DNA from: Octopus sinensis | Lineage: Eukaryota | Assembly: GCF_006345805.1 (NCBI RefSeq) | Contig: NW_021835901.1 | Span: 1-40,690 of the forward strand | DNA length: 40,690 nt | Direction: 5' to 3' | Shown: positions 4,200 through 35,346 of the stretch, in pieces | Layout: each line of letters starts with the position of its first letter | How positions within the stretch are numbered: the first letter of the stretch is position 1 | Position numbers and translations under genes: made by a program | The notes under the pieces: generated by a model | Database searches by the model: none | Seen by the model: the letters and a program-made list of their open reading frames with translations, nothing else | Told to the model about the DNA's origin: nothing

Positions 4200-4283
4200 A
4201 TGGATGTAAATAAGATTATAAGCAAGATTCAGAATGGAGACTTTGAAGATGTTGAACGGCTTATCAAAGAAAATCCTGATAAA
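4200..4283 (+). CDS. Coding exon 1 ([28 protein letters not shown]), N-terminal ankyrin cap
   Basis: TCAAAAG|ACATG acceptor; AAA|GTAAGT donor; ends phase 0. Confidence 0.8.
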
Positions 4284-7119
4284 GTAAGTTTACTTTATAT
4301 TGCTTCTTCAATGTTGAATGTTTGTTTATTATTTTATACACAATATTAAATATTCCTAAATAACCAGATATATTTGTCCATAATATTTCATTTCTTTCTT
4401 TACCTCTTTCCTCTAATCCTCATCATTGTCACTTTTTATAAATATTCAACCAGACAATGAGGTATGCCAGAATTGATGGAATGTGAGTGAGAGAGAAACC
4501 CATCCTCACACACTGCAATGGAGTATTCTGGCAGGAAATATTCATTCCAAGAGATGGGGGACAGATGGATCCTATAGATAAATGGTGACTTTGTCAAGAA
4601 ATTCTCTTGCCATACACAGTTAAAGGTTTTACCGACGTCAAGGGCTACACCATTTCTTTTGCAGAAGTTGTCAAACATAACCAAAACACTGGGGAGTCAC
4701 GTAGGAATCAGACCCCTGCTTGAACCAGCTTTATGGAACTGTACTGGGGCTCATTGAATAGAGAAAGATACCCAAAGGGACAAAGATGATGGTTGTTTAT
4801 GACTTTTTACTTCATAATTGAAATATTGGAAGTTAGAATGACTGGCTGGTAGTCAGCAGATAGGACACTATCAGCAAGAATTATAAAACAGGGTTTCTCT
4901 AAGAGAGTAGTGCTACCCTTTGGTAGGGATTGTGGAAAATTTTATAAGGACCAGGGAGCCAAGGCGGCTGTGGTGGTACAAATATATGAAACTCAATGTG
5001 TAGTTGAGTTTGGATCAGAAACTAAAGTGCATCAAATTTTCACTTATTGTGGGGTGGTGCTGTGGTAAGTAGTCACCCATGTCAAGACTAGGACCCAAAG
5101 GTAAATTAATCTGACCTGTGAGAATATTAAAAATTAGGGATATTTCTAGAATAGCCAAGCATGTGGATCATCATATAGAATGAGGATACATGTATATAAA
5201 TACATGCCAGCCTCGCCTGGCCCCCGTGCCGGTGGCACGTACAAAGCACCCTCCGATCGCGGCCGTTTGCCAGCCTCGTCTGGCACCTGTGCCAGTGGCA
5301 CGTAAAAAGCACCCACTACACTCACGGAATGGTTGGTGTTAGGAAGGGCATCCCGCCGTAGAAACATTTTCCAGACCAGACTGGGCCTGGTGCAGCCTTC
5401 TGGCTTCCCAGACCCCAGTTGAACCGTCCAACCCATGCTAACATGGAAAGCTGACGCTAAACGAACGATGATGATATATATCAAATTAATTAGAATTAAA
5501 ACCACTATTAGGCAAATCAAACAGTGAAAAACATAAGCCAAAGCATAAAAATAAAAATAAATATAATATACAAAATATATAAGATATAAAATTTAAAATT
5601 CATATCATTTAATTTATTTAAATTTAAAATTATTAATTTATATTTTTAAATTTAAATATTTTTTAAATATTTTAAAAATTTAAATTAATAAACTTTTAGA
5701 TTAAAAAAAAATTTAAATATATAACAATCAAAAAGTATTAAAAAGTTTAATATACGATAATAAGTATATATATATATGTGTGTGTGCATGTGTGTATGTG
5801 TATGCACACACACACTCACATATATATATACATACACAAATACATATTTACAAATATATAATTAGACACGCACATACTTGTATGTGTGTGTGTGTGTGCT
5901 CTTATATATATATAACATGATGTGTGTGTGTGTGTGTGTGTGCATTTGTACTGGTGTGTGTGTGTGTGCATGTGCGAGTATGTAGGCATACTGGTGTGTG
6001 TATGTGTCTGCGTGCATGTGCATGTGTGTGTGTATATCTTTATTTCTCTTTCATATTCCTTTTTTTCACTCCTGCATCTTCTTTACTCTATCTTTCCTCT
6101 TCTCTCTCCCCCCTCTCTCTCCTCTCTCTATCTCTCTCTCTCTTTTAATATATTTCACGTCTTCTCTTTCTTCTCTTCAGGTTAAAGAAACAACTTCAAA
6201 TGGCCTTACATTACTCATGGCTGCCTGTGAACGAGGCAGCATAAGTTTAATAACCTTATTGACAGAATCTGGCGCTGATCTCAACATCGGAGACAAAGAC
6301 AAGAGGACAGCATTGCATTATGCTGTGGATAAGTAAGGCTTGAATTAACTAAAATCTTCAGATCTGCTTTTGTTTCAAAATTTTTTGCAATTCCAGACTA
6401 TTTGAATATCCAAAGATACCATAATAGTGGCAGTGTGACACGATAACAGCATGATAGTAGTAACCAAATAACATCTTTTTCTCATTTTCTCCATGAATCC
6501 TCTTCATTGAATCACAAAAATCTTTGTCATCATTTCTTGTCATAACAGATTCTTTTTGTTTTGGAGATATTCTTTGAGATCCAACAGTTCTTAAGATTGA
6601 CGCTGTGTGATTCAGTGTCCTTTCTTGATATTGATTTTGGAGAGATCGATCAATTTTTCTCCAAAGAAAATGTTATTTGAGATCCAAAACATGAAGAAAG
6701 ATTCTCAAGCTTGTTTTGGCAGTAAATAATCTGTAAATTTCTTACAGAAATTATTTCTCACCTCCATCTATAACTTACTCAACACATTTTTAGATGTATT
6801 GTATTTTGAATTGTGCTTCATAAGGTCGCCTTCGAAACATGCTTGACTCCACTAGCGACAGCTGATGACGGGGGTTTTGTCCTTGTGTAGCTCGTCCTGT
6901 AATTGTTTTTGCGTTTTCTTGTTTTTCGTTTTTCGTTTTCTTGTTTTTTGTTTTTTTGTTTTTTCCGTTTCTACGTCTTATTGTGATGTCCTGTACTCAC
7001 GTATAATTATTTATATATGCATGTATATATACATGTAGATGTAGGTACGTACATATATGTTTGTATGTATGCATATATTCTTATTTATCACCTATATATA
7101 TATATATATATATATGGAT

Positions 7120-7647: not shown

Positions 7648-10600
7648 ACACACACACACACAGACGAGGCTGTAGTATACATGGGTTTTTATGCATTTGA
7701 TGGAACACGAGTGTATATTTAACGTAATTATTAAGTGAATGTCCTTTTTTTCCCTTTCAGCCGTCAAACTGAGGCTGTGGCCTTCTTAGTCTCCAGGAGA
7801 GCAAATGTTAATGAGCAGAACTCACAGGGCGACACACCTCTACATCGGGCTGTGTGGAACAAAGATGAAGATGTAGTCAAAGTCCTGTTAAATATCAAAG
7901 GAAACAACAATTTACAGGTTAGCGAATATATATATATATATATATAAATATTGTTTAAATATATTTGCTTGTTTATTTAACTATTATCATTAACCTGAAG
8001 ATTGACTATAACTGTAATTCGAATTTTTAATTGAATTTAAATTATTGTAATTCGAATTAGGTTATGGCCATGAAACGTACGTAGTGGTTTTACTTATTAC
8101 CTTATATTAAACTTTTCAATACTTTTTCATAGTTATATATATTTATTAAAAAAAATTTAATTTAATAATTTAAAAATCTATTAATTTAAAATTTAAAAAA
8201 TGTAAAAATTTATAAATATAAATTAAAAATTTTAAATTTAAATAATTTAATTTAAAATTTTATATTTTATATATTTTATATTAATCATATTTATTTTTAT
8301 GTTTTGGTTTATGTTTTTCACTGTTTGATTTGCCTAATAGGGGTTTTATCTCAAATTTAATCTATATTTATACTGTGAAACCTGATTTAATCCTAAATCT
8401 AATTCTTCCCTGTAAGTTTGGATTTAATCCCTAATATTATTATTGCGCAGGAGTGGCTGTGTGGTAAGTAGTATGTTTATCAACCACATGGGTCCGGGTT
8501 CAGTCCCACTGCGTGGCACCTTGGGCAAGTGTCTTCTACTATAGCCTCGGGCCGACCAATGCCTTGTGAGTGGATTTGGTAGACGGAAACTGAAAGACAC
8601 CTATTGTGTATGTATGTGTGTGTGTATATATATATGTGCGTGTATGTTTGTGTGTCTGTGTTTGTCCCCCTAGCATTGCTTGACAACCGAAGCTGGTTTG
8701 TTTATGTCCCCGTCACTTAGGGTAAACTTAGCGGTCCGGCAAAAAGAGACCGATAGAATAAGTACTGGGCTTACAAAAGAATAAGTCCCGGGGTCGAGTT
8801 GCTCGATTAAAGGCGGTGCTCCAGCATGGCCGCTGTCAAATGACTGAAACAAGTAAAAGAGTAAGAGTATATGCAAACACACATGTGTGTGTGTCTGTGT
8901 GTATAGATACATTATAAATCTCACCTATTTATTTCCCCCCACCTTCATTCCACCTGTTTAAATTTATCTGATTCTTTTTTTCTGACATTTTTCATTTTTT
9001 TCCTTCTTCCCCCAATAAACACCATCTTTTATGTCTTTACTGTTTATCCTTTTTAGGTTAACAAGAAAAATAAGGATAGTAAGACACCGCTCCATCTTGC
9101 TTCTCAGAACGGGCAAACGAAGATTGTAAAACTTCTCCTTGAACACAATGGCACAGACATCTGTGCTGTGACCAATTCAGGTGACACACCTCTGCATCTG
9201 GCCTCATTCCTTGGACACATAGACATTGTAAAACTTCTCCTACAACAGAAAGGCACTGGTATCTGTGCTGTGACCCAATCTGGTTGTACACCTCTACATC
9301 ATGCCTGTCGGTATGGACACACAGACACAGCTACACTTCTCCTACAACAAAATGGCATCGATGCCAATAAAGTGGACAAAGCTGGTGACACTCCTCTCCA
9401 TCTGGCAGTTCAAAAGTAAGTCCCCAATGGATTTGGATTATCCAAATCTGTTTCTTTAATGTTTGTTTTCTTGTTTTAAGTCATTCATGTCATAATCCCA
9501 CCATGGGTCATCATACTTCAACTCCCTCTCTCTCACACTCTAATGACACTGTAATCTAACTTCATTAATTAGTCATCATAATTATTGTTGTTGTTGTTGC
9601 TACCTGGCTAGATTCTTTACTTCATCTCATCCTTCATTATCTCAACGTTACAGGTTCAAATCATCTCCCTTCTTCTTTCCATTCCATGTAAAACACCTCA
9701 CCCCCTCTCTCTTGTAATTTTCCTCTTTCCTCTGGTCCTGGGCTAAATGCAGAATCATACCCTTACTTTGATCTGTTTATGTTCCAAGTTCAAATCCTGA
9801 TGTGAAAATCTGTACCAGTAATATCCAGGGGTTCATTTAATAAATTGTCCTCCCTCTTTTCTCCTTTACTTGTGTCTGATTACTGTTGGATGGAATACCT
9901 TGTGGTGTTTATTTACCACCCTTTATGTTCAGAGTTCAAATCCTGCTGAGGTCACCTTGTCCTTCCATCTTTGCTAGGCTGATAAAATACAATACCAGTC
10001 ATATACTGGGGTCCTTATAATCCACATTATCGCTTCTCCCCATCCTAAATCTCATGTCTATATAATAGGTGTTCATCATACTATAAATAGATTGCTGTGT
10101 TTACTCAGGTGTGTATATATATATCGTTGGTCTATAATGTAGAGAGTATATTGAATATACGAGAGGGGTACCCAAAAGTAACCGAAAACGTTTCTGTGTG
10201 GGGCAAGGCCATTGAAGTTCAGGCTTCTGCTCCTAGAAGCCACTTGATGCGATACTCAGGCATAAGCCTGCCAAGTGGCATCTTCTAGGATGGTGCTGTT
10301 ACCATATGGTGCATCTTTGTTTTGCAGGGCTTCTCCCCTGTTCGAGTTTTGCAATGGCTGAAATGAAGGATCAGCTTGCTTCCATGAAATTCTGTTTTCT
10401 GCTGGAGAAAACTGCAGCCGAAACAGTTGTTATGCTTCAAACAGTTTACGAGGACACTGCCATGATGCCACGAGCAAAACACAAGATCACAAGTGGTTTT
10501 CTTGCTTTTCGAATGGTCACTTGTCACTTGAGGTCCAACCTTATTCAGGGCAGCCATCAAGCTCCCGAACGAATGAAAACATCATGAAAATTCATGAACT

Positions 10601-13455
10601 GATTTTGGAAGACATTCACCGAACAATTGACCAAACTTGTTGATATGACTGGTGAGTCTTCGAGCTCCTGTCAACGAATATTGAGCGAGGAATTGCAAAT
10701 GAAAAGTGTTGCAGCAAAATTTATGCTTCACTTGCTCACAGAAGATCAAAAGCATTCATGGTTGAATGCATTTCGTGAACTGAAAAAACAGCTGGAAGTC
10801 AGTCGCTATCTTTTATCGAAGGTCATCAATAGTGACAAAATCTGGTGCTACAGAATTTGCAGGTGTGGAAGAGATGAAGAAAAATACGATTGATGCTTCG
10901 AGAGGCATCACTTTGCCAGTGTTCCAGCACTGCTTTGAATAGAGGAAAACGCGTCTGGATTAATGCATTGTTTCAAATGGGGGGATATTTTGAAGGTGAT
11001 AAAAGTGTTAATACGTAAAACTAAGCAAATAAAATAATATTGCAAAATTCCGGGTGCTTTTGGGTCCCCACCTCATATATAACTTAGATAACTTAGATAT
11101 GTTTCAACCAAAGATTGGTCCAGGCCATGTCTAACTTAATAGCACCACCTGACAGGATTATTCAAATCTTGTTTAAGTCAAGTTTTGTTTAAGTCAATTT
11201 TTGTTCAAGTAGTGAGTTCTTGTTGGGTGAGTTGTATCCAATTATGGGTGGCTTATCTGGTATTCTTTGAAGGAATCTATCCAGACTCCGTTTAAAGTTG
11301 ATGGGATCCTTTTCCTCTTTGATCTCCCTCGGGACAATGTTAAATAGGGCAGGGCCTGTTGAGGAAAAGAAATTATGTTGCAGTGTACATGTATGTTGTG
11401 ATCTTGAATTGGGCAGGGGACGTATGGCCCGTGGTCCCAGTGTTGGATGAACCTTGAAGCTAATGTTAAGGTCGTTTGGGCAAAGTTGGCGGTATATTCT
11501 CCACATCGTACAAATGATGTACCGCTATATAAATGTAGGATCCAAGGATTGATGGGTAGGAAGGTGAGCTTCAACCAATCCATAGAAAATTTTAAAAAAA
11601 ACTTTAAGGAACAAAACGGGTTTATTAGGGCTCCAGGTTGTTGATTTTTTCCTTATTGAATCTTCTGTATGTTAACCTGTGCCTCTCCTATTGACAGTGT
11701 AAACTTCTTTTAATGAAGATACGCTTGGTCTGAAGAGTAGCCAGTGGTATACACCTCACCTGGATAGTTACCAGTTTCGATGTTCCGCTTGCTTTGAAAC
11801 ATACGTAGCCCAGATTTTATCTACACTATTCCTTCACTCATATATTTATGTATGTATATATATACATATATATATATATATTTTTTACTACCCCCAAGGG
11901 GCCAAAAACAGAGGGGACAAACAAGGACAGACAAACGGATTAAGTCGATTACATCGATCCCAGTGCGTAACTGGTACTTAATTAATTTATCGACCCCGAA
12001 AGGATGAAAGGCAAAGTCGACCTCGGCGGAACATGAACTCAGAACGTAACGGCAGACGTAATACGGCTACACATTTCGCCCGGCGTGCTAACGTTTCTGC
12101 CAGCTCGCCGCCCTATAAAGAATACAACAGGGGTCACCACCACCCCCTGCCGGAGCATCGTAGAGTTTTAGGTGTTTTCACTCAATAAACACACACAACG
12201 CCCGGTCTGGGAATCGAAACCGTGATCTTCCAATATATATACATGTATAGTCACATATGTATAATATGTATTTGTGTGTATGTAATTATTGATGTAATTT
12301 GGTTATAATGACCTAATTACATTTGTTTTAATTAATCTAATTATAATTATTTATTTCCTTTCCTCTTTCTATAACTTTCAGGCAACACCATAATGTGGTG
12401 GCTGCAATGCTGGCCCAGGTTAGTTAACAAATACATAATTATATCCTGTCTTTAATATTCAATATTAATATCATCAAAATACCAGTGAAATTCTGGGGGT
12501 AGGTTTAATCAACTTCACTGCAGCAGCCTTTAAACAGCAGGTCTTGGGTCTGTGAAGAATAATTATGTTGGTGATAACAATGATGATAGTAGTAGTGGTG
12601 GTGACAGTCCAACTGACCACCACTGCTGACAGTACTATCTTCAATGGTCAGACAAAACAAGGTCATTATAAATTCAACACATATATATCAGATTATATAT
12701 ATTATCATCATGATGTATGTATGTATGTATGTATGTATGTATGTATGTATGTATGTATGTATGTATGTATGTATGTATGTATGTCAGGTCACTTTCTAGG
12801 GCTACTGGTAACATGTAACCCAGTACAACCTGTTGCATGGTCGGGTCGTCGACGACTAAACCGGCAACCCCACCAAGCTTGCTTGGTGAGGAGGGTGTTT
12901 ATTGGACACCCTGTGGGATGAAAAACAAAACCCGTCAAAGGGTGGGGGAACTCTTGAGAGTCAACGGCCATCCAATAAATGTCTTAAGGCTGTATCATGC
13001 GTGGGGACATAGAAATAATCTGAATACCCGATTGCGCGGTTAAATCATTGAGAGTGAAGGACTCCTAGCCTTTGTTAGGGCATCCTTCTAGGAGAAGGTA
13101 ACTCAGGTAACTGGGATAACGCTGACATAAAACCTGCGGCTCAGTGGTTACCGATGATGTTGACTTTTTCTTCTTTTCGGATTATGGCTGCTGTTGCTTA
13201 GTGAGTGGGATTGACTCAGTGCACAGCCTTTCCTCACTTTAAAAAAATCTCCTTGCAAAGGCATTGCACGATAACAACATTGATTAAGCTTCGTGCAATG
13301 GCCATACTCGATAACGAGGGGGCAGCCACCATGTATGTATGTATGTATGTATGTATGTATGTGTGTGTGTGTGGGTATGTATGTATGTATGTATGTATGT
13401 ATGTATGTGTGTGTGTATGTATGTACGTATGTATGTGTGTGTGTGTGTGTGTATG

Positions 13456-15478: not shown

Positions 15479-16966
15479 ATGTGTGTGTGTATCTCACCTC
15501 CATAACATTCATGTATGTGTGTGTGTATGTACAGGAATGTTAAGGATGTGGACACTAACCAACTCACCTGTTTTATGAACCCCTTATTAATATAGCAACA
15601 TCATAATTCTTCTTTACTAGTTTTGATCTGCTAATTATATGTTCACTCTTGTTCTGCTCCCCTAAAATTTTCTATAGTGAGAGATAAATATAGATTAGGC
15701 TGAAACAATCTGTTTAAGACCCCTTAATAGATTTATCATGTTCCTAACACATATCCATAGCATGATATAGAGAGACCGTACAGAAGGTTGTCCTCACTAA
15801 CAAACATCAAATGTACATGATCAGGTTGATCAAGTACCCAGTAGAAGACAACAATGACACATCCACCCTAATTTTCATGTACATTTTCAATTTCTATTTT
15901 TACTTCCACAAAGGATTCAGTGAAACTGGATACTGAGAACAATCGTAAAAGAACACCCTTACTGGAAGCCGTGTCTGCAGCCCACCTCGGAATAATCCAT
16001 GACATTATCACGCACGGTGCAAACATGAATGCCATCGACAATGATGGCAATAATTGTTTGCACCTTTCCATAATAAGGAAAGAGATATTCCATTCTGAGG
16101 TGGAACCCATTCCCATTTTAGATGAGGTAAGTTTTAAAAATTGTTTGTGAATATATGTGTGTGTGGTTGGCATTAGGAAGGGCATGCAACCGCAGAGACT
16201 ATGCCAAAACTGGCAATTGGTGCCTGAGCAGCTCTGCAGCTGCCCAGCTTCTGCCAAACTATCCAACCCATGCCAGCATAGAAAACGAATGTAAAATGAT
16301 GATGAGGAGGATGTGTGTATGTGTGAGAGAGAGAAATAGAGAAACAGGCAGACATTGTTTGCTATTTTCTTTCACTCCCATCCACTTCTCTTCCTTTAGT
16401 ATTAAATAATTCAGTTTCTCCTGATAGCACTAGTTGTATTATGTAACTAACAATATTCCATCTCCTTTCAACTTCAAAAACGTGGCCACTCCACTGTAAA
16501 GAAGGTAACCCATCTTGGATATTGGTCATATAAACACTGCCATCACATATAAAGGAGAGGTGACCAATGACAGAGATGCAGGGTAGAGTAGAGTTCTTTG
16601 TGAGATGAAAGATGATAAACCTTTATAATGCTGGTTAGGGTTAGGCTGACATAATCCAGAACATTCTATGAAGAATGTTCTCTGAAACAGCTCTCTATCA
16701 CACCTCGCCATTAGATTCGAGAGCTATATTTTCATAGTGTTACTCTTTTTTACCCTTTTTACTCTTTTACTTGTTTCAGTCATTTGACTGTGGCCATATT
16801 GGAGCACCGCCTTTAGTCGAGCAAATCGACCCCAGGACTTATTCTTTGTAAGCCCAGTACTTATTCTATCGGTCTCTTTTGCCGAACCGCTAAGTGACGG
16901 GGACGTAAACACACCACCATCGGTTGTCAAGCAATGCTAGGGGGACAAACACAGACACACAAACAT

Positions 16967-17065
<99 letters not shown>

Positions 17066-20000
17066 CATATATACGACAGGCTTCTTTCAGTTTCCGTCTA
17101 CCAAATCCACTCACAAGGCATTGGTCGGCCCGGGGCTATAGCAGAAGACACTTGCCCAAGATGCCACGCAGTGGGACTGAACCCGGAACCATGTGGTTGG
17201 TAAACAAGCTACTTACCACACAGTGACTCCTACGCCTATGTTTTTATTTTTCTAGTTTTTTGTGTTGATTTTAAGCTACTTTTGTTGTTCTAAGCTTATG
17301 ATTATTATTATTATTATTATTTACAGAAGTTTTACTCTCCACCGCTTCCTCATTTAATGTATGTTTGTTTGTTTGAAAGACCTCAGCATCTATCCACTGC
17401 TAGATCTGATGGTGTTTATTGTCTGTTGTTGCAGAATTTAAGCAACTCTTTGATTCCCTAATATGTAACGGTCACTACAGATGTGTGGCTGTATTTCAGA
17501 CAGTTGATGGTCACCTATGTATTGTTGTAATGTCTTCTTTGGTGAGAAGAAGTTACTCTAGCAGTCAACGACCCATTATTATAGGAATTGTCTATCAGAC
17601 TAACAGTTTCAACAATTTCTTGACTATAATGTGTTGGTGTGTTGCCTCAACCACCACACCAATCTTTACTTCACTTCATCAGCCAAAAATGTTTCTTTAT
17701 AAATTTTGGAAACATTATTGATATGCTTGGATATGTCTGTCTGGTGTTGGTTTTGTTGCTGTGTCTGAAGAAATTATTATGTTCTTGGTGTTCTCTGTTC
17801 ATTGTTTGTTGTTATGGAAATGAGTTGCACTTAGTGACCAGTGAATCGTTTCCCAATCAATATTTGGATTATCGAAATTACTAGTAGGAAAATATGAGTG
17901 ACTACTTTCATAGATGCAGATCTGAAGATGTCAAAAATCTGAGTTTTGATGGCAGTTTTGCAGATGGTAAACAAATTCAAGTAGGAGTATATATGTTGTT
18001 AAAGAAATACTTCTTGTTGCGACCAGTTAAAATCTCCACAAGGAATTACAGAAAATCTTGAGTGACCACAGACCACCAGACGACCCCCATGGTAATTAGA
18101 ATGGCCTTTGTGTAACAAAATGTAGCTTGCCATTGTTTGTTGTTATGTTGTTGTGTTATATTTATATATACAATACTCTTCCATAAGTATTTCTTTTGTT
18201 ATGGCCAGTTGGCTTTATCAAGCCAGTTGTAAAGATAGGTTCTTGTTGGTTTGTTGTGTTCTGTTATTTGTGATACTTGTTCCATTATATTTCCTACATT
18301 TGACATGATTTGTTTATCTACAATATATATTTGTGTAATATTCTACTCATCGTTTTATATTTCATCATTTGCAGTGCTGCAAAGAGCTCCCACTGGACGA
18401 GGATAGAAGGCTCTCTGGAATTGTAGTTTTGAGTTATCTTGCCAACCAAGGAGCCAGCTTATACCATCGTAATAATAAGAATATGACCCCATTGGACTAC
18501 ATAAAAAATCAACTTTTAAAAGAAAATTTACAAACATTTTTACGATCACTGTAAGTACTCAGATAAACCAGGACATTTTCTCTTTTGTATATAATCATGT
18601 TTATATGTTTATTTAGTTTGAATTCTCCCAATGTATTATTCCGTCAAACATACATATCGTATATAATTAATTCTCAGGGCTTTGTTCAATGTTAGAAGGG
18701 AAACCTGTTTTGTTACCTGGTATCAGCCTGGTTACTTTTGATCAGGCATCAAAAGTCGTGGCACCCACTGAGCTGAAACCTTCGACATGCCAAGTTCGTT
18801 ATGCAGAATGTTCTCAACTTATTCACGGGAGAGTTTCCTACAGCATTAGTTATCTTGATTAATTTTTAAATGTCTGCCGTCCATTACTGTGTGGTGAACA
18901 TGGTCAATGTTTTCTTGGGTGGTGGCTGTGGCAGGACGTCCAGACCTTGGGTCATCTTCAAGACTTTTCCTACCTCTCTTGAATTCAGTTGCCCATATTT
19001 GCAGAGTTGATAAAGCTGGAGCATCATCCCCTAATGTAGCAACCGTGTCAGCATGAATGACCTTGTGGGGGCTAACCCCTTTTTCTGCAGATATCTGATA
19101 ACACCATGGTGACAAATTTTATCCATTTTCACAAAATGTCTCTAGTGCCACTTTTGCAAGCCCTCAATTCTGATTCCTATGTGGGTTTATCTGGAAAGAA
19201 AAAATGCAATTCGCATCAGTAAAGGTTGAATTTAATGCGTGCCAAGTTTAATTACTGTATGATAATTCCTCCTTAGTCAGCCTATAATATTTTCAGCCCA
19301 CCCTTGTATGTGTATGCTAATGTGACACTTGTATGCACACAAATCTGCTTGTATGTAATTGTTTACAGAAGAATTTACGATGTACTCTTGCTGGTTACTG
19401 TTGTGCCCCTTAATATTCTGTACTCTAAACATGTCCACAACGAAATATTTTATTATAAATGAATGTTAATGATGGGATGTGTTAATATTTTGTTCCACAG
19501 GTGTCGGTGGTGTCAAGAGAAAAAGGCTACTGTCACACTCCATCCATGTCAACATACTGTTATTTGTCAGAATTGCTGTTCTCAAATGACATTTAAGCAA
19601 TGCCCCATATGTCGACAACACATACACAGCAAAAGTGGATTTGGTAAGAACATTCTTTCTTGATCTGTCTGTTGTCTCATTAACTTTCTGGTATGGAATA
19701 ATGCACTTCATATTGTAGTGGAGACATGCAACTCCTTGTTTGTAACTATATATTATTAACACTTGTTATAATGTTTGCCATCCTTTTAGACATTTTATAC
19801 TCACACTCGTTAGTTTTTAGATGTGATTAATGCTAAAAGAGACATTGTTTTCTGACTCTTTCACCTTTTGGCTTTACTTTTGAGTTGATTCGTTTTAATT
19901 CGAACATGAAGCCTGGTCATTGCTCCAAGGTGGTATCAGAAAGTTCACGGACTAGTTCTGTAGCATGCCAACAGATGGCAGCACACCGTTCAGCACACAG

Positions 20001-23000
20001 TGAGAGCTAGCAATGACTTTCATGAGGCAGTGTGCTGGGTGACACCACTGCGTTTACTTCAAAAGTTGTGAAATTTGTGCTTTTGTGGTCATTTGTAGGC
20101 TGTAGTCTGCAATTTTCTAATGGGCAGGAACAAATAACCAATGTGAAATTTTGTGTTAAACTTGTCCAGCAAAGACATAAGAAAGAAGCAACAAAACTAA
20201 GAGAAAAAGAATGTTATGAAGTGATAACTAAGTGAGAGAATTTCAGAATTGTTAGATTAGTATATAGGATGTCTTAAGAGAACGATGAGATTTAGAAAGG
20301 CTTACCCATTTTGTTCTTGTTGTAAATATTGAACTATTATATAGTAACAGCTTAGAAAGTGTTGACCGAAAGCATAGTGGTCACCAATTGACTATTGATG
20401 ATATGAATGCCTTACAATAATGGAATATAGATTATTAAAAGAGACAAAGAAATTTTACTATGAAGTATAAAACTCTGAAATGCTTATTTCAGTGTGTCCA
20501 AAGTTTGAAGAGAAAGCAGTCCAGGCGGTTGTAGAGTCTGTTGGTGAGTATAAAATAACTGTAATTGATTTCTATAAATTTTACCTTCACCTGAGATGTA
20601 TTATTTGTGTGAATGACTGAGAACAGGTTCCATTCTTAATTTCCAATTCTTATTTCAGAGTGTCCAAGGTGTAGAGAAAAAACAGTCAAGACGGTTGCAG
20701 AATCTTTTGGTGAGTATAAAATAACTGTAATTGATTTCTATAAATTTTACCTTCACCTGAGATGTATTATTTGTGTGAATGACTGAGAACAGGTTCCATT
20801 CTTAATTTCCAATTCTTATTTCAGAGTGTCCAAGTTGTAGAGAAAAATCAGTCAAGACGGTTGTAGAATCTTTTGGTGAGTATAAAATAACTGTAATTGA
20901 TTTCTATAAATTTTACCTTCACCTGAAATATATTATTTGTGTGAATGACTGAGAACAGGTTCCATTCTTAATTTCCAATTCTTATTTCAGTGTTTCCAAA
21001 GTCTGAAGAGAAAGTAGTCAAGACGATGGTAGAATATTTTGGTGAGTATAAAATAACTGTAATTGATTTCTATAAATTTTACCTTCACCTGAGATGTATT
21101 ATTTGTGTGAATGACTGAGAACAGGTTCCATTGTTACATTTCTTTCGAATGGTTAGCAATAAAAGTAATCTATTCTCTACCTAAAAATGCAAGAATATCC
21201 AATAAAGGGGTTTTATGAGACACAGGAAAAATGTCTTTCACGATAAGGAAAAAATACAAAAGATGAAATATAAACCCCGAAGCGGTTCTCTACCCTTAAT
21301 GAGACACATTCACTTTTCTCTCATCTCATTGTTGTCTCCCTCCCCCCCTCTCTCTCTCAGCATCTACAAGTAGCAGCCTCTAGTTTCCAGTCGTGTAACA
21401 ACATGAATTATATTTAAAATATTGATATTACAGAAATTTAATAAAATGTCCAGCAGTGTTGGCCCTGTTGCTAAAATGGTTAAATTAGAAAAAAAACAAA
21501 ACAATAGAGTTAATATTGTGTTTTGAATGAAGGAAGAAAAACATTTTGTTGTTTAATGGTAAACAGGTGAGTTAATGACAGTGTTTGTTTGTTGTACATT
21601 TTCAATAAGTTTACTGATTATTGTTGTTGATGTTCTTGTTGAACAAGATGGTTAAGTTGAAAGCTTACAAGTGTGATCACCCTGTCTTTTTTTTCACTGT
21701 TAGTAAATCTATCATTACATCCATTAAAACGATGTCTTTGTCCAAGTAAGAAGCTTTGGTCTGCTGCTGAGACAATTGCTCTCTCTCTCTCTCTCGCACT
21801 CTCTCTCTCTCTCTCGCTCTCTCCTTAAGGCAGACATTGGCTGCAAGATACAATACAATCGATGTTATTGTCCTCATCATTTATAGTCTGCTCTCCTTGC
21901 TTCCATGTAATGGATGGGTGATCACTGTCCAAGTCAGTTCTTATTCAGAGTTACTGTCCCCCTTGACTGCTTGAGAAACACATCTCCCTTAAACATTCCA
22001 CCTTTTCTATAGTGGGATGCCCCCCCCCCCACACCAACCACTTCATAAAGAGTCCTGAGTACATTTTAATGTGGCACAAGTACTAGAAAGATTTTCATGT
22101 GTCCAACATTGAAACTGGAATAGCTGTAGGTTGCACACTATCAATCACTTGGTTTGTGCTTGTTATGGGGATCGGCAGATTTATGAGAAGAAATTACTCA
22201 GGCAAAATCACCTAAGAAGACATTCATGGATGACATAAAAATGCTAACAAGAGATCCAAAGTATATGCAATCAGTCCTAGATAGATTGGATGGACTAATT
22301 AATTGCTCAAGAATGCTGTTTGAAACAAATAATGAATGCATTCTGACATTTGTGAAAGGTCAACAGAAGCAAGTGAAGTTCAAAATAGCAGGAGAAACGA
22401 TGTGAAAGGTTAAAGAGTAACTTGTAAAATGTTTTGGACTGTGGTAGACGATCTCATTGTCCGATAAGAGTAGAGGCATTGATGTCATTGCGGAAACCGA
22501 GGATGGGCAATAAGCATTTGCCAAGTCAAAACTTCTGGGCAAAAACAAGATTTGGTGCTTGAAGTTTGATCTATATCACCATCTTGATAATATATTCTTA
22601 AATATCACTTCTTTTGTACCATTTCAGATGTTTTTCCTTTGCGAAAATCTGTGTATATTTGAATGTTGTTAAAGATGTTTTGTGCAAGTATACAGTGTTT
22701 TAGGATACTTGCTATCACTTTCTGTTTCACCTGTGTAGAACTAATCATTGCTCATCAGGAAAGAAAAGCATTTCATTAAGGAGTCCTTAAATATTTCCTG
22801 AATCAGATGAAATTCTGGTGAACTGTGAGTTGCATAGTTTAAAATTAAAGATTAAAAGCAGCAACGTTTGACAAAGATAACAGGTGTGACATGAGTTTGT
22901 GTCAAGGTCGTTGATGACCAGCTTGGTTGACATCAGAATTAAGCAAAAGATGAGGGGAATGTTGATTAAGTGAAGTCCAGTGGTGAGGGGACAATGCCAT

Positions 23001-24301
23001 GTCATAGGTTTAGCATGGATATAAGAGAGAAGAAAGATAAAAGGTGTTAACATGTGATCATTAAATAAGATGATTGCAACATTGTTAGATTAAGTAGGAT
23101 GTCTTAATAGAAAAAGGAGGCTTAGGAAGGTCAGTCTATTTTGTTATGGACCTAAATATTGAGCCATTATATAGGACCACTGTAGGCAGTATAAAAGTGC
23201 CAACCGAACCTATAGTGGTCAGAAGTTGTCCATTTATGATAGGAATGTCTTACAATAATAAAATATAAACCATTAACAGAAACGGGAAATTATGCTATGA
23301 AGTGTAAAATTTGGAAATATTTATTTCAGATTCTATAATGGTAGAGGAGAAGCATCTTCATAGGGTGTCCCAAAAGTTGGGAGGTAAATGGATGGTACTT
23401 GGTGAGTATAAAATACCCAATTTCTATAAATTTTGCTTTCAGCTAAACTTTTGTTTGTTTGAATGACTGAGAACAGGTTCCGTTCCTAATTTCCAATTGA
23501 AAGTTTAGCTATAAAGTAAAGCTATCACTGAAATTTCATAAAATATCTACGGACGTCAGCACGGTTGTAAAATGTATAAATTAGAAGGTCCAGTAGAGTT
23601 AATACTATCGTTTGTAAAAGGGGACCCCAAAATATTGTTGTTTAAGAATAAACAGGTGAATTAATGACAATGTTTTTGCTTGTTTACACTTTTAGTAAGT
23701 TTACTGGTAGGGTGTTGTTGTTGATGTTTATTTCGGCAGATATCGGCCTTAATCTGGCAGAATTAAGAGGAAAGGGTCCCAGATGTGCCATCACTCTTTC
23801 TCTTGGGGGAAGAGGACCATACTATCAAACACTTCTTCTGCCAGTTGTTCACCAGACATTTTCTCATGTGTAATTTTCAATGAATTTTTTTTTAAATTCT
23901 TCTCCTTCTCCAGCCTTTATTTCAAATTGTTTGGTATTTTTATCAACATCTTTAGAGATAGATAACAATGTCTTCTAATGTCCCTGTTTCTTAAGTATTT
24001 CTCATTCTTCTATTCACATAATTTCTTTGTCGTAATTAATACAGATTTTATATTATCATTAATGCTGTTGCAATTAATTCTCATTTCTTTTGCAGGAAGG
24101 GAATTAGGAATTCAACAAAATGACCTGGAAACCATCAAGCATGACCATACTGGTAACACTATGGAACAAGGCTTCCAGATGCTGCTCAAATGGTTTCGAA
24201 GTAATGACCCAGCGAAACGTAGACTTCAAATATTAAAAAAAGCTCTTGTAAGAACTGAATGTTATGAGGCACACGAATATTTATCATCAGAATTCAATTG
24301 A
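4200..24301 (+). CDS. Spliced gene (14 coding exons, about 600 aa): Mind-bomb-like ankyrin repeats + RING finger + 4x17-aa repeats + Death domain; putative E3 ubiquitin ligase/adaptor
   Basis: Exons 4200-4283, 6181-6332, 7761-7917, 9057-9415, 12382-12418, 15914-16126, 18375-18550, 19501-19643, 20493-20543, 20659-20709, 20825-20875, 20991-21041, 23330-23401, 24096-24301. All introns are GT-AG, phases match, and the total is 1803 nt with no internal stop. Shows TPLH ankyrin motifs, C3HC4 RING spacing and a Death-domain pattern (LG..W..LGRELG...EQ.FQML.KW). Confidence 0.88.
4440..4730 (-). mobile_element. Degenerate LINE reverse-transcriptase fragment (CR1/Jockey-like)
   Basis: [13 protein letters not shown]...[12 protein letters not shown] resembles the RT pattern ALD.SKAFD.VW...INSGVPQ. 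Confidence 0.6.
5205..5474 (+). mobile_element. SINE/retroposon 3' portion with (GAT)n tail (family D)
   Basis: Internal repeat TGCCAGCCTCG...GGCACGTA; CCAACCCATGC...GATGATGAT tail; related pieces at 16160-16305 and 25094-25151. Confidence 0.7.
5478..5760 (-). repeat. AT-rich dispersed repeat, inverted copy of the 7960-8370 family
   Basis: TAGGCAAATCAAACAGTGAAAAACATAA is the reverse complement of the motif at about 8310, 14775 and 28700. Confidence 0.8.
6181..6332 (+). CDS. Coding exon 2, ankyrin repeats
   Basis: Polypyrimidine tract + CAG; [12 protein letters not shown]...[19 protein letters not shown]; AA|GTAAGG donor, phase 2. Confidence 0.92.
7195..7510. mobile_element. Second palindromic Penelope-like terminal-repeat fragment
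   Basis: Inverted arms about 7197-7270 and 7290-7370. Same downstream sequence (CAAATTTCCGCA...CGTAACTTCAACCGTG...TTTGCTACCC) as 129-440. Confidence 0.5.
7761..7917 (+). CDS. Coding exon 3, ankyrin repeats
   Basis: TTTCAG acceptor; [18 protein letters not shown]; CAG|GTTAGC donor; phase 2 to 0. Confidence 0.92.
7960..8370 (+). mobile_element. AT-rich dispersed element headed by a hammerhead motif (Penelope-derived or retrozyme-like)
   Basis: Shares TTTATGTTTTTCACTGTTTGATTTGCCTA with three other copies in the window; hammerhead motif at 7993-8087. Confidence 0.6.
7993..8087 (+). ncRNA. Minimal type I hammerhead ribozyme motif with weak stem I
   Basis: CTGAAGA at 7995-8001; stem II TGACTATAAC/GTTATGGCCA extended by TAATTCGAATT/AATTCGAATTA; GAAA at 8072-8075; palindromic ACGTACGT; GUA site at 8083. 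Confidence 0.6.
8445..8867 (+). mobile_element. tRNA-derived SINE, family A, full length
   Basis: A box GTGGCTGTGTGG, B-box-like GGTTCAGTCCC, internal microsatellite, AAAAGAGT tail; five copies in the window. Confidence 0.85.
9057..9415 (+). CDS. Coding exon 4, about 3.5 ankyrin repeats
   Basis: TTTTAG acceptor; four TPLH motifs at 34-aa spacing; AA|GTAAGT donor; phase 0 to 2. Confidence 0.93.
10160..11075 (+). mobile_element. Internally deleted mariner (Tc1/mariner) transposon
   Basis: TIRs CGAGAGGGGTACCCAAAAGTAACCG / CGGGTGCTTTTGGGTCCCCACCTCA flanked by TA. Broken transposase: [50 protein letters not shown]. Confidence 0.88.
11189..11550 (-). mobile_element. 3' end fragment of a CR1/L2-group LINE
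   Basis: [18 protein letters not shown]...[16 protein letters not shown] is a typical LINE ORF2 C-terminus. Confidence 0.75.
11726..11812 (+). ncRNA. Degenerate minimal hammerhead ribozyme motif
   Basis: GGT-CTGAAGA (11730-11736); stem II AGCCAGTGG/CCGCTTGCT; GAAA at 11796-11799; near-palindrome ACATACGT; GUA; then GCC. Confidence 0.5.
11885..12112 (-). mobile_element. SINE family C
   Basis: Minus strand begins GGCGGCGAGCTGGCAGAAACGTTAGC (tRNA-like head); GACCCCGAAAGGATGAAAGG core; second copy at 39725-39901. Confidence 0.8.
12131..12230 (-). mobile_element. SINE family B fragment
   Basis: Reverse complement matches about 39985-40080. Confidence 0.75.
12382..12418 (+). CDS. Coding exon 5 (37 nt, [13 protein letters not shown]), completes an ankyrin repeat
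   Basis: TTTCAG acceptor, CAG|GTTAGT donor; supplies the phase 2 to 0 bridge needed between exons 4 and 6. Confidence 0.8.
12786..13330 (+). mobile_element. Non-coding dispersed element, probably RTE-derived, embedded in (TATG)n
   Basis: GC-richer block between two (TATG)n tracts; TAGGGCATCCTTCTAGGAGAAGG recalls RTE 5' UTR motifs (from memory). Confidence 0.4.
13331..13960. repeat. Compound (TATG)n/(TG)n/(CATG)n microsatellite
   Basis: Directly visible; explains the spurious HTYI/MYVC ORFs. Confidence 0.97.
14239..14561 (-). mobile_element. SINE family A
   Basis: Reverse complement of about 8447-8800. Confidence 0.85.
14570..14826 (+). repeat. AT-rich dispersed repeat (7960-8370 family)
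   Basis: TTTATGTTTTTCACTGTTTGATTTGCCTAATA motif. Confidence 0.75.
14827..15490. repeat. Long imperfect (TA)n microsatellite
   Basis: Directly visible. Confidence 0.97.
15914..16126 (+). CDS. Coding exon 6, ankyrin repeats
   Basis: [20 protein letters not shown]...[17 protein letters not shown]; GAG|GTAAGT donor; phase 0 to 0. Confidence 0.9.
16160..16305 (+). mobile_element. Family D SINE 3' fragment
   Basis: TGGTTGGCATTAGGAAGGGCAT...CCAACCCATGCCAGCAT...ATGATGATG, as at 5330-5474. Confidence 0.7.
16741..17236 (-). mobile_element. SINE family A, full length, with expanded internal (TA)n
   Basis: Reverse complement of 8445-8867. Confidence 0.88.
18375..18550 (+). CDS. Coding exon 7, last (Mind-bomb-like) ankyrin repeat
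   Basis: TTTGCAG acceptor; [28 protein letters not shown]; CT|GTAAGT donor; phase 0 to 2. Confidence 0.9.
18846..19307 (-). mobile_element. Mariner 5' remnant
   Basis: [24 protein letters not shown] (mariner HTH linker); TIR-like TACAAGGGTGGGCTGAAAA at about 19307. Confidence 0.8.
19501..19643 (+). CDS. Coding exon 8, C3HC4 RING finger (MIB/IAP-type spacing)
   Basis: CRWC...[12 protein letters not shown]...CPICR; CCACAG acceptor; G|GTAAGA donor; phase 2 to 1. Confidence 0.93.
19926..20165 (+). mobile_element. Mariner 5' remnant
   Basis: TIR-like AAGGTGGTATCAGAAAGTTC; [12 protein letters not shown] transposase start. Confidence 0.55.
20493..20543 (+). CDS. Micro-exon 9 (51 nt, [17 protein letters not shown])
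   Basis: TTATTTCAG acceptor, G|GTGAGT donor, phase 1-1, open frame. Confidence 0.75.
20659..20709 (+). CDS. Micro-exon 10 (51 nt, [17 protein letters not shown])
   Basis: Same splice signals as exon 9, phase 1-1. Confidence 0.7.
20825..20875 (+). CDS. Micro-exon 11 (51 nt, [17 protein letters not shown])
   Basis: Same splice signals as exon 9, phase 1-1. Confidence 0.7.
20991..21041 (+). CDS. Micro-exon 12 (51 nt, [17 protein letters not shown])
   Basis: Same splice signals as exon 9, phase 1-1. Confidence 0.7.
22110..22580 (+). mobile_element. Degenerate Hero-like (R2 group) non-LTR retrotransposon RT fragment
   Basis: [15 protein letters not shown]...[11 protein letters not shown]...[15 protein letters not shown]...FKIAGE...[12 protein letters not shown], with in-frame stops. 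Confidence 0.7.
23330..23401 (+). CDS. Coding exon 13, start of Death domain ([24 protein letters not shown])
   Basis: TTATTTCAG acceptor, G|GTGAGT donor, phase 1-1; joins exon 14 to give [13 protein letters not shown]. Confidence 0.88.
24096..24301 (+). CDS. Coding exon 14, remainder of Death domain and stop codon
   Basis: TTTGCAG acceptor; [33 protein letters not shown]...ILKKAL; TGA ends at 24301. Confidence 0.92.
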
Positions 24302-24479: not shown

Positions 24480-25370
24480 GGATCTTTACCTTTTGACCGG
24501 CAGATTTAGAAAATAATTTTTTGGAACTGAATACTTTCATACTTCGTATTCTGGTAGAATGTGTCGTATAAAACTTTTTTTACTCTTAGCATTTTTGAGA
24601 AAAGTTTATATTTACGAAGTTATTCCGTGTTAAATTTGTCGTATTTCAGTAATTTCAACCAATCAATGATGTGTATTCAGCTGAATAAAATTACTGCCGT
24701 TGTTTGTTAACAACAACTTCCGGAGGTGTATATTTTGTTTGTCACTGTTATTTATGACATATTTCATCTCAGTTATGTTTGTATGAAAAACGTGTGTATC
24801 TGCAACGTGTTTACTTCATGGCACCGCTATAATCGTTCGTGCATTTCTACTGGTTTTAGTTATTTTTTCCTGTTTTTCAGCTACTATTTTTGGAAAGACT
24901 TTTTTAACCCTAACCCTAAAACCCTATCCCTAACACTAAATCCCTAGCCCTAACACTAAAACCTTAACTCTAACCCCAAAACCTTAACCCTAACCTTAAA
25001 ACCTTAAAGCTAAAACTAGTACAAACGCACGAACGATGTCATAAATAACAGTGACAAATGAAAAATACACCGCCGATAGTTGTTGTTGACAAACATCATC
25101 ATCATCGTCATCATCATCCTTTAACGTCCGCTTTGCATGCAAGCATGGGTTAGCAGTAATTTTATTCAGCTGAATACACATCATTGATTGGTTGAAATTA
25201 CTGAAATACGACAAATTTAACACGAAATAACTTCGTAAATATAAACTTTTCTTAAAAACGCTAAGAGTAAAAGATGTTTTATACGACACATTCTACCAGA
25301 ATATGAAGTTTGAAAGAATTTAGTTACAAGAAATTATTTTCTAAATCTGCCAGTCAAAAGGTAAAGATCC
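24480..25370. mobile_element. Non-autonomous long-TIR (foldback/MITE-like) DNA element with internal telomere-like repeats
   Basis: ~280-bp TIRs beginning GGATCTTTACCTTTTGAC; flanks GGGTTTGG / GGATTTGG (8 bp, 1 mismatch); degenerate (TAACCC)n at 24905-25015. Confidence 0.85.
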
Positions 25371-26576: not shown

Positions 26577-28363
26577 TGGCATCCTTTCTGTCTCGGGAGA
26601 CAATGGAGTTGCGCATTTTTTTTTTCTAGGTCTAGTCCGGCTGTTATATTTTATTTCCTGTTACATTTCTTGCTGTGGCTGTGTAGTCCTATCCTGGACA
26701 AACACTCCCTCTGGCAGGTACTGCAAATGTAGCGAAGACTGTTCCTGGCTGGTTGTAGTGCCATGGTCTCTTGTTTATGTCTCTTCCTTTCTTTCCATTT
26801 CTCCTCTCTCTTTCTGTCACTCCTCTGTATACCCTCTTTTACTGTACGTCGCCATTCTCCACGGTTGCCGGCGACTGCCTCCCAACCGCTAATGTTGATG
26901 TTGCAGGCCTTCATATCCCTTTTGCAAACATCCTTGTAACGCAAGATCGGTCTACCCACAGACCTAGTACCCCTAGCAAGCTCTCCGTAGAGTATGTCCT
27001 TGGGGATTCTGCCATCTTTCATACGGCTAACATGCCCAAGCCATCTCATACGTCTTTGTGTGAGGAGTGCAAACATGCTTGGTATTCCTGCTTGCCTGAG
27101 GACATCTTTGTTGGGGATATGATTCTGCCATTTGATGTGGAGGATTTTTCGGAGGCAGCGCAGGTGAAAGATATTTAGGCGACGCTCTTGGCGTGTGTAT
27201 AGCGTCCAGGTCTCGCTTCCATACAGTAGAGTGCTGAGTACACATGCCTGGTAGATCTTCATTTTTGTGGTCTTAGTCAGCTTATTGTTGTCCCAAGCCC
27301 GTTTGGAGAGTTGGGCCATCGCAGCAGCTGCCTTGCCAATGCGTATATTGAGCTCAGCGTCAAGGGATAGGTTGTAGGTGACGGTAGAGCCCAGATAGGT
27401 AAACTTCTCCACCTCTTGTAATGTGTGGTCTCCAATATGTATGTTTGGGATGTCCGATGTAGCCTGGCCCATGATGTTGGTCTTCTTAAGGCTGATAGCT
27501 AAGCCAAAGTCGTTACATGCTTGCTCAAAACAGTTAATGAGCCTTTGGAGGGCTTCTTCTGTGTGTGTTACCAGAGCGGCATCATCAGCAAATAACATCT
27601 CCTTGATCAGGACGTTTCTGATTTTGGTCTTGGCACGCAGGCGCGAGAGATTGAACAGTTTCCCGTCACTTCTACTGTGCAGAAACACTCCATCATCTGA
27701 TGTCTGAAAGGCATGTGACAGCAAGAGTGAGAAGAAGATGCCAAACAATGTAGGAGCGAGGACACAGCCTTGCTTTACCCCGTTTTTTATTTGGAAGGCG
27801 GCTGATGTTGAACCGTTGTGCTGTATGGTGCCTTGCATGTCATCATGGAAAGACTTGATGATCCTCAGCAGCTTTGGTGGACATCCGATTTTTTGGAGCA
27901 GGAGGAAGAGGCCTGTTCTGCTTACCGAGTCAAAAGCCTTTGTTAGATCAATGAAGGCCATATATAATGGCATTTTCTGCTCTCTGGACTTCTCCTGAAG
28001 TTGGCGTATGGAGAATATCATATCGATAGTTGATCTGCTTCTTCTAAAGCCACACTGCGATTCCGGATAGATTCGAGAAGCAAGTAGTTGTAGCCTGGCC
28101 AGGATAACGCGGGCAAAGGTCTTTCCAACAGTGCTTAGAAGGGATATACCACGGTAATTGTTACAATCACCACGGTCACCTTTGTTTTTGTAGAGCGTAA
28201 TGATGTTGGCATCCCGCATATCCTGAGGGACTGTACCCTCTTCCCAGCACTGACACAGAAGCTCATAAAGGTGCCGAAGCAGGATGGTGTTTTTGCCGGC
28301 TTTGATGATCTCTGAGGGGATGCCGTCTTTTCCCGGAGCCTTATTTCTTGCTAGGGAGTCAAC
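26571..28363 (-). mobile_element. 5'-truncated RTE-clade LINE inserted in (TA)n
   Basis: Uninterrupted frame from 28363 (NKAPGKDGIP) to the stop at 26651; short 3' UTR; (TA)n on both sides. Confidence 0.93.
26651..28219 (-). CDS. RTE LINE reverse transcriptase (N-terminally truncated) with C-terminal Cys/His motif
   Basis: NYRGISLL, QCGFR, FIDLTKAFD, GVKQG, LFADD, YLGS, RWLGHV, CSTC...HSH..C. Confidence 0.9.
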   Translation of the reverse strand: MRDANIITLYKNKGDRGDCNNYRGISLLSTVGKTFARVILARLQLLASRIYPESQCGFRRSRSTIDMIFSIRQLQEKSREQKMPLYMAFIDLTKAFDSVSRTGLFLLLQKIGCPPKLLRIIKSFHDDMQGTIQHNGSTSAAFQIKNGVKQGCVLAPTLFGIFFSLLLSHAFQTSDDGVFLHSRSDGKLFNLSRLRAKTKIRNVLIKEMLFADDAALVTHTEEALQRLINCFEQACNDFGLAISLKKTNIMGQATSDIPNIHIGDHTLQEVEKFTYLGSTVTYNLSLDAELNIRIGKAAAAMAQLSKRAWDNNKLTKTTKMKIYQACVLSTLLYGSETWTLYTRQERRLNIFHLRCLRKILHIKWQNHIPNKDVLRQAGIPSMFALLTQRRMRWLGHVSRMKDGRIPKDILYGELARGTRSVGRPILRYKDVCKRDMKACNINISGWEAVAGNRGEWRRTVKEGIQRSDRKREEKWKERKRHKQETMALQPARNSLRYICSTCQRECLSRIGLHSHSKKCNRK

Positions 28364-28385
28364 ATATATATATATATATGGATCC

Positions 28386-33761: not shown

Positions 33762-35346
33762 ATGAACCTTAAAGGTAAGTGAATTAATGATATTAGGAAT
33801 GAAAAGAGAGATAAATTCTAAACTTGTTTTTATAATTCTATGATATAAACACTGTGGAGGCGCAATGGCCCAGTGGTTAGGGCAGCGGACTCGCGGTCGG
33901 AGGATCGCGGTTTCGATTCCCTGACCGGGCGTTGTGAGTATTTATTGAGCGAAAACACCTAAAGCTCAATACTGCTACTACTTGTGCTTTCATCGCATTA
34001 GGTTTATCATAATCCTTTTCCCATTTCCAAGGAGAATGGAAAGAAGAGAGGTGGATTCGTTTAAATCTTGGATCGACTGATAGAATTCTTTAGAGACATA
34101 TTTTGTCCACAAATTCTGCACTTGTCACCACCTTCTGATGTGTTGTCTATTCTGTAGTTTTTGACTCAGTAGGTGAATATGAAATGTTATATCAGAACAA
34201 ATATTACCTATTTGTGTATTCAAGAAACATGCTCTCTCTCCCTCTCTTTTTCTCTCTCTCCATCTCTTTCTCTCTCTCTCTGTATGTATATATATATATA
34301 TACATATATATATATGCGTGTGTGTGTGTGTGTGTTATAAATGCATATCGTTATAGGTGTAAAAATACCATAAAAAATTATAGAAAAATGGAGGAGAAAA
34401 AGATGTTGAATCAAAATTAGATTTAATACAAAATAGGGTTCAATACATACGCGCATTTCAAAGGACAATACAAATAAGTAAGGAAAAATTTTGACCAAAG
34501 TAATTATGATTAAATTTATGCATTGTCATTTTCATCTGTGTGAGGAATTTTTGTAAGGACATCAAAAGAGGTTTAATAAAATAAAGTAAATTAAAAAAAA
34601 GATACAATACGGGAGAATACAAATGGGGTAATAGGGAAAAAAATCTGATATTTGCAAGCAAGTTTTAAAAGGGGAAAAAAGTAACAATAATAATAATAAT
34701 AATAATAGTAAGAGAGACGAAAGGTAAAAAAGACAGACATACCTATGCTTATGCATGTCTATATGTGCAGTAATATACCTTTATCGGTATTTTTCAACTA
34801 CTATTTTCGTATTCTCATTACTTGCTCTGGCTGTTTTTTTTTTATGAATATGATGAATATGAGAGAGATGAATAGACAAACACGCATGCGTGCATGTAAT
34901 CTTGTATATTTTTCAGGAATGGAAACATCAATTCAATATCATTTGATTCTCCTATTGCTGCCATATTTCACGCTTGTATTTTCCGTAACACCTGTAATTG
35001 GACAACCAACGTATAGAGAAGGCCAATTCACAAAACTCACAACAAAATGCTTAACTGATCAGAATAAAGCAAGAGAATACACGTCATCTCTTAAAGAATG
35101 TTCATTTCGGTGTATTTCCCGCGATGAGTGCGAATATTTTACCTATTGTAATGCCGATGTTATATGCACCGATTGTTCCACGACAAATACATCGAAGATT
35201 ATGATTGCAACTGTTCATCGTATATTTCGGCCAAGGGAAACGGTATGTAAATCAACATTTTCCTGTATGCTTTTTCTAATTATTACATATTTTAATCAAT
35301 AATCTATGTGTTCTATATACAAATGATTATAATAATATATATGTAT

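Follow-up and report, generated by a model that had tools for sequence, protein, structure and literature searches.

Results

A predicted RING ligase gene with four tandem 51-nt exons

The window, by which we mean the whole 40,690-nt stretch of Octopus sinensis contig NW_021835901.1 that was analysed, contains a gene of 14 exons (4200–24301, plus strand). The exons form an open frame of 600 aa that is identical to RefSeq XP_029657320.1 (model X1), and the protein consists of ankyrin repeats, a C3HC4 RING (aa 392–436), a segment encoded by four micro-exons, m1–m4 (aa 441–508), and a death domain (aa 516–595; Table 1). By PDB sequence matches, the nearest solved relatives of the RING are those of cIAP1 and cIAP2, and those of the death domain are Fas and, weakly, RIPK1. 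Apart from the last pair, the eight ligands of the RING do not vary among the 14 proteins aligned, and a ligase role is predicted. A fold search with the host protein returned generic ankyrin matches alone, among many of which was the MIB1 ankyrin domain (8v0e).

The micro-exons account for 68 of the 600 aa (11%) of an apparently cytoplasmic multidomain protein. In an AlphaFold2 model built on an alignment of 14 sequences only, the sole long stretch with pLDDT below 50 was aa 440–510, which matches the micro-exon segment. The micro-exons are thus predicted to encode a disordered linker. The preliminary description had placed them between an upstream RING and a downstream death domain; both domains were found (PF13920 and PF00531), and the length of the linker between them varies.

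TRF reported a period of 166 with 4.0 copies at 20479–21142, corresponding to four tandem 166-bp units, each with a TTATTTCAG acceptor, a 51-nt phase 1-1 exon and a GTGAGT donor. In pairwise comparisons the exons differed at 3–13 of 51 positions and the introns at 0–2 of 115 (0–2 of 90 for unit 4); among units 1–3, variable positions numbered 13 of 51 in exons versus 2 of 115 in introns (Fisher P = 4e-6). Over the six exon pairs we counted 54.5 non-synonymous versus 8.5 synonymous differences (pN 0.229, pS 0.125). There were no stops and no indels in m1–m4, and a CPxC motif was present in units 2 and 3. The counts, together with the frame and splice sites, bear out what had first been read from the letters: units of this build, nearly identical introns, mostly non-synonymous exon differences free of stops and indels, and CPxC in two copies. 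An assembly artefact or a non-coding minisatellite is excluded by the splice joints, the open frame, 14 sister arrays and a counterpart in O. vulgaris.

Table 1. Features of the host gene and the micro-exon array (window coordinates).
Feature	Position	Strand	Evidence and remarks
Exons 1–7, ankyrin-repeat region, aa 1–393	4200–4283, 6181–6332, 7761–7917, 9057–9415, 12382–12418, 15914–16126, 18375–18550	+	Open frame, splice sites, Pfam Ank, RefSeq X1
Exon 8, C3HC4 RING	19501–19643	+	PF13920 E=6e-11; PDB sequence matches 6hpr, 3eb5; exon 7–8 joint in contigs
Older duplicate around first death-domain exon, array inside	20167–21633	+	Versus 23011–23728: 68% over 511 columns, 70% over 233 columns
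Micro-exon m1	20493–20543	+	Register KAVQA, Gln retained, +1 Thr gone; m1–m2 joint in 4/6 RNA-type runs
Micro-exon m2	20659–20709	+	CPRC; register KTVKT, Gln to Lys; m2–m3 joint in 4/6 RNA-type runs
Micro-exon m3	20825–20875	+	CPSC; register KSVKT, Gln to Lys; m3–m4 joint in 5/6 RNA-type runs
Micro-exon m4	20991–21041	+	Register KVVKT, Gln to Lys; joint to first death-domain exon in X4, X12; loose ends X1, X2, X6
Three 115-nt repeat introns	20544–20658, 20710–20824, 20876–20990	+	0–2 differences; GT..AG joints
First death-domain exon, 72 nt, phase 1-1	23330–23401	+	Acceptor/donor context as in micro-exons
Second death-domain exon, contains stop	24096–24301	+	PF00531; PDB sequence matches; joint 23401–24096

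The micro-exons are included in transcripts and are likely skipped

Of 24 listed runs, contigs from eight were compared: six, from five studies, were taken as RNA, and the others were two large, DNA-like runs of unstated kind. None of the listed runs is recorded as RNA, and this status was deduced from the GT..AG joints themselves. Joints between consecutive micro-exons were found in most RNA-type runs (Table 1) and in 0 of 2 large DNA-like runs. Two of the four runs compared at the 3′ end of the array joined m4 to the first death-domain exon, and the connection from exon 8 to m1 was present as loose ends in RNA-type contigs. Three consecutive joints of 25+25 nt matched the window gene exactly, versus 1, 4 and 3 mismatches for the nearest other gene. 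Inclusion joints from m1 to m4 were therefore seen, and exon 8 is not always spliced directly to exon 13, the first death-domain exon; no such direct joint occurred among the joints listed (15 of 18).

Joints that skip exons were also recovered, m1–m4 in runs X12 and X6 and m2–m4 in X1, X4 and X2. As these lie only 2 and 1 nt, respectively, from joints possible in a paralog or neighbour, skipping at the window locus is likely, short of certain assignment. Two further candidates, exon 8–m4 and m2 to the death-domain exon, contain intervening other letters and look paralog-like, and they were left out of the skip counts. RefSeq has five models in Octopus sinensis, of 600 aa (m1–m4), 583 aa (without m3), 566 aa (m1 and m4), 549 aa (m1 only) and 499 aa (reading into the intron after m2). 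Of the proposal that any subset of the four exons could be skipped, giving 16 combinations, the in-frame property holds; RefSeq models only 4 of the 16, and the skip joints carry the ambiguity just given.

Unit number varies across a large octopus gene family

A DNA search gave 96 matches from 40 of 292 candidates scored. Arrays of 2–9 units were present in 14 of 20 stretches examined (two ended by contig ends), and the O. vulgaris counterpart, whose protein is 94% identical, has six. The copy-number survey suggested in the preliminary description thus found variation among sister arrays. Excluding one extra unit without a clear acceptor, we catalogued 63 exons, 55 of them 51 nt long, four with in-frame deletions and four out of frame, all four of the latter on short contigs. 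For statistics we used 49 exons and 42 introns from 12 arrays, leaving out L025 (a near copy of L024) and the indel-rich L034 and L029. These 49 exons contain no stops and encode 40 distinct peptides.

The family is large in octopus, with at least 83 RING-exon matches, and word-indexed searches returned family matches only from O. sinensis, O. vulgaris and O. bimaculoides. No usable match to the feature came from the ESM Atlas. Six paralogs (L021, L022, L026, L028, L030 and L033), which form one subgroup, have after the array an untruncated, degenerate second copy of the 72-nt first death-domain exon, in frame as an extra linker. A separate lineage (L047, L050–L053, L057, L058 and L063) repeats a 78-nt motif exon in units of 2–2.6 kb, with its own Gln-to-Lys knock-outs. 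In L090, L092, L093, L096, L097 and L104, exon 4, which corresponds to 9057–9415 of the window, encodes a variable number of near-identical 34-aa ankyrin repeats that differ mainly around TPLHxA, at the positions randomised in designed ankyrin binders. The repeats have the look of a natural variable receptor.

Exons diverge about four times as much as introns

Counting substitutions in the 49-exon set placed exon divergence far above that of introns: pN was 0.156 (0.115–0.198), pS 0.126 (0.03–0.27) and intron diversity 0.036 (0.022–0.053), so that exons varied about four times as much. The ratio pN/pS was 1.23, and pN exceeded pS in 69% of bootstraps, which is not significantly above 1. Under codon models, omega was 1.76 in the micro-exons (2dlnL 4.65), ~2.5 in the death domains (2dlnL 11.4) and ~0.75 in the RING. 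All three values are rough, and the first is inflated by dropped codon states and by recombination (of 153 site pairs, 104 failed the four-gamete test, failures rising with distance). An exon and the intron that follows it are unlinked (Mantel r = −0.01).

Diversifying selection on exons or homogenisation of introns had been offered as explanations for this pattern. Ordinary unique introns and flanks differ between paralogs by 1.2–8.6%, most of them by 1.6–4.7%. The repeat introns are no more alike than these, so array-specific homogenisation is not needed, and conservation of introns specific to the array is ruled out. Selection on exons is the better of the two options (omega ~1.8, rough).

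The excess was also found in other coding exons. Exon 2 differs from paralogs by ~30% versus 2–5% just downstream (pS 0.26, flank 0.04), exon 7 by ~9% versus 0–3% at its flanks, and the last exon by ~15% versus 2–8% in flanks, the untranslated side included. Between the window gene and L027 the last exon has 30.5 non-synonymous and 1.5 synonymous differences. Exon 3 is an exception (pS 0.065, pN 0.092, flank 0.10), and the RING exon has pN 0.032 and pS 0.044 between paralogs. Exons 2, 6, 7 and 14 all stand far above their flanks with sharp edges, synonymous sites included.

Since ankyrin and death-domain exons share the coding excess, it points to fast coding evolution across the family and not to a special homogenisation of introns. 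Several exons also have elevated synonymous divergence, an effect not expected from simple positive selection; it would fit old coding variants that are kept while conversion evens out non-coding DNA. Exon-only change at the RNA level or through cDNA is disfavoured, because the 3′ untranslated flank of the last exon differs by 2–8 per 100 versus ~15 per 100 in its coding part; A/G changes, moreover, are common in introns as well.

Linker exons of older relatives carry a predicted LC8 motif

From 45 stretches of more distant paralogs we collected 56 symmetric linker exons of 48–78 nt with the same splice context. Among 37 distinct older peptides, 23 have QT in one register and nowhere else, and 14 lack QT in that register. 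The pattern [KRN]x[VTISM]QT was matched by 31 of 42 distinct exons (three non-aligning ones removed) versus a mean of 0.17 and a maximum of 3 in shuffles, counts that overstate independence, as the exons share ancestry and the pattern was devised once the sequences had been seen. The Gln column is the most constrained (lowest pN, 0.10), and its two codons are equally frequent (CAG 18, CAA 18). Over 31 proteins, 39 matches lie after the RING versus none in 7428 aa elsewhere.

The available text of PMC6607443 gives rules for motifs that bind LC8 (dynein light chain), namely D/E at −4, K/R at −3, V/T/I at −1, Q at 0, T at +1 and E/D at +2, and the older octopus exons follow them as known LC8 clients do. 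Scored on these rules as stated there, 19 of 35 older peptides have the anchor and 11 of 35 meet all six, and the mean number of rules met is 4.3 in register versus 0.4–1.8 in other registers. Several motifs nearly match measured LC8 binders in data sheet 1 of PMC12057147, for example ZFPM1 and Bmf. An O. bimaculoides protein with the same type of RING has three VQT motifs, and intact motifs are therefore probably ancestral for this RING-type subfamily. Judged by sequence, the older linker exons carry a predicted LC8 docking motif. The assembly encodes LC8 itself: a dynein light chain of 89 aa at L041 (1489–1755) matches solved LC8 with E=1e-55. The assembly has 22 dynein light chain matches (L042–L046 and other short contigs), several of them divergent and on unplaced contigs, and some may be extra paralogs or foreign DNA.

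The motif has decayed in the arrays. In the same register the 49 array exons read QA in 21, KT in 15 and QT in 4. The anchor [TVI]-Q-[TVI] is found in 6 of them and in none of the four window exons (VQA and three times VKT), the +2 rule is met by 0 of 49, and there is no QT in the linker of the O. vulgaris counterpart. Lys replaced Gln on two separate occasions, with the codon AAG in the array and AAA in the 78-nt exons. Loss of LC8 docking explains relaxed exon change but not accelerated change.

Probable origin from the first death-domain exon

The array sits within an older duplicate of the stretch that surrounds the first death-domain exon (Table 1). In register, m1 and a paralog's death-domain exon agree at 29 of 51 nt, with 0 of 300 shuffles as good. 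A tree of 59 flanks was star-like, with the array clade alone firm (100/100), and leaves the root unset. The death domain is ancient, and the linker exons therefore most likely descend from its first exon, as far as these alignments can tell. Origin from the RING exon was rejected, as the DNA likeness is near chance (91 and 11 of 300 shuffles).

Discussion

We lean towards the view that the array is a spacer of variable length derived from LC8-docking cassette exons, with the predicted docking turned down or off in the window gene by changed anchors. Each unit would be a copy of a cassette exon that has a predicted LC8 site in older family members. RINGs of the cIAP type must dimerise to work. 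LC8 is a dimer that duplexes its clients, according to the accessible part of PMC12057147. On these two grounds, a motif just behind the RING is expected to pair two chains. Such pairing would raise ligase activity and cluster death domains. Both the pairing and the distance from RING to death domain would depend on copy number, on anchor mutation and on exon skipping, more exons giving more sites and a longer reach. In the window gene, where the sites are predicted to be dead, a spacer of 17–68 aa would remain, perhaps with CxxC as a new property. The units may have been multiplied and shuffled by unequal crossing-over and short gene conversions, with selection retaining coding differences as in the ankyrin and death-domain exons.

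A bolder version, which we hold only tentatively, is an exon-coded valency dial: an LC8 motif made from a duplicated helix-1 exon of the death domain and present once per skippable exon would let copy number, Gln-to-Lys knock-outs and splicing set dimerisation and signalling in a fast-evolving, DARPin-like receptor family.

Adjacent CxxC exons might instead fold a C4 zinc site (CxxC-x13-CxxC), added or removed by splicing or copy number, for which the LC8 motif was traded. Together m2 and m3 form one CxxC-x13-CxxC, an arrangement present in three of the six linkers inspected. In the O. vulgaris protein four CxxC follow one another, and CxxC is associated with the Lys anchor (13/20 vs 2/29, P = 2e-5), although this link may reflect shared descent of one haplotype. 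CxxC occurs, however, in only 15 of 49 exons; three of 12 arrays have none and several a lone one, the DNA likeness to the RING exon is near chance, and the model, weak here owing to its shallow alignment, has no fold at this place (pLDDT 26–37). We consider such a site improbable, and metal binding by paired CxxC, as first proposed, is unsupported.

Nor do we give much weight to the idea that the degenerate motifs of the window still bind LC8, weakly but jointly, as in ASCIZ-like multivalent clients. Of the 49 array exons, 48 retain position −4, 41 retain −3 and 41 retain −1, and weak sites can be carried by multivalent context, as described in the part of PMC12057147 available. Against this, Lys at 0 (m2–m4), Ala at +1 (m1) and a hydrophobic residue at +2 (all four) contradict the rules as given in PMC6607443.

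It is about equally doubtful that the linker is a nearly neutral spacer, in which slippage multiplies units, nothing counts but frame and freedom from stops, and the diversity of the exons comes from old variation that conversion has reshuffled. The pN/pS ratio that is not significantly above 1, the raised pS and the tolerance of in-frame deletions (4 of 63 exons, with 4 of 63 out of frame) are consistent with it. Neutral exons should vary like introns, whereas common variants were present at 20 of 51 exon versus 8 of 115 intron sites; three amino-acid states occur at many positions, and the 3′ untranslated flank of the last exon lacks the excess. Least probable is an arms-race bait, by analogy with the tripwire linkers of NLRP1 and CARD8, in which cleavage or binding (e.g. 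by pathogen proteases or effectors) would free the death domain, even though the linker is disordered, fast-changing, variable in copy number and next to a Fas-like death domain, and the hypervariable ankyrin repeats of paralogs suggest an immune role.

The gene and its array can be compared with known systems. Like Mind bomb (MIB1/MIB2), the octopus gene encodes ankyrin repeats followed by a C3HC4 RING (PF13920), but it has one RING instead of several, plus a C-terminal death domain. Mind bomb ligases carry Mib_HERC2, ZZ and MIB-repeat domains before the ankyrins. We found no Pfam matches to these three in the proteins P0004 or P0052, so that "MIB2-like", the label that paralogs receive automatically, claims too close a kinship.

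Intron homogenisation is known from MHC class I. Among the three-finger toxin genes of viperids (accelerated exon evolution; accessible part of PMC2474615), as in octopus, paralog introns are more alike than exons and segments are exchanged between exons. Unlike in these toxin and MHC families, the octopus excess is seen in a family of intracellular ligases and also between the tandem exons of a single gene. Schistosome micro-exon genes share with the octopus gene short symmetric exons, which would permit splice variation in frame, and fast non-synonymous change; as far as the available text of PMC5825161 goes, their exons are of 6–36 bp and make up ~80% of a secreted or surface protein, whereas the octopus exons are 51 nt long, constitute 11% of an apparently cytoplasmic protein with an ankyrin N-terminus and are tandemly duplicated with their introns. 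Multivalent LC8/DYNLL1 clients (ASCIZ/ATMIN, Nup159, Chica and 53BP1; accessible parts of PMC5963919, PMC6607443 and PMC12057147) likewise have several TQT-type motifs in a disordered region. In octopus, by contrast, every predicted motif has a symmetric exon to itself, and the number of copies varies among paralogs and species. The protein that carries them is a predicted E3 ligase, and the four window copies lack the anchor.

Arrays of symmetric exons, gene families whose coding sequence evolves fast and multivalent LC8 clients are known already. In the literature searched, mostly non-subscription, we found neither an account of the octopus ankyrin–RING–death-domain family nor a case with one LC8 motif in each duplicated exon. 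The locus may offer a traceable case of a short linear motif that arose from, or shares an ancestor with, the exon of a folded domain and was then multiplied and switched off. With variable ankyrin repeats and fast death domains, the family's members are candidate intracellular immune sensors.

Several other features lie in the window. A LINE-like open frame of 577 aa is found at 26651–28384 on the minus strand (reverse transcriptase PF00078, E=1.5e-34). Short frames at 10237–10893 (plus) and 18846–19118 (minus) resemble mariner transposase remnants by eye, with no Pfam match at E 0.01. A frame at 34712–35302 (plus), likewise without a Pfam match, has a signal-peptide-like stretch and a cysteine-rich segment and is possibly an exon of a secreted protein. 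Downstream of the gene, at 24905–25016, is a degenerate, telomere-like TAACCC repeat.
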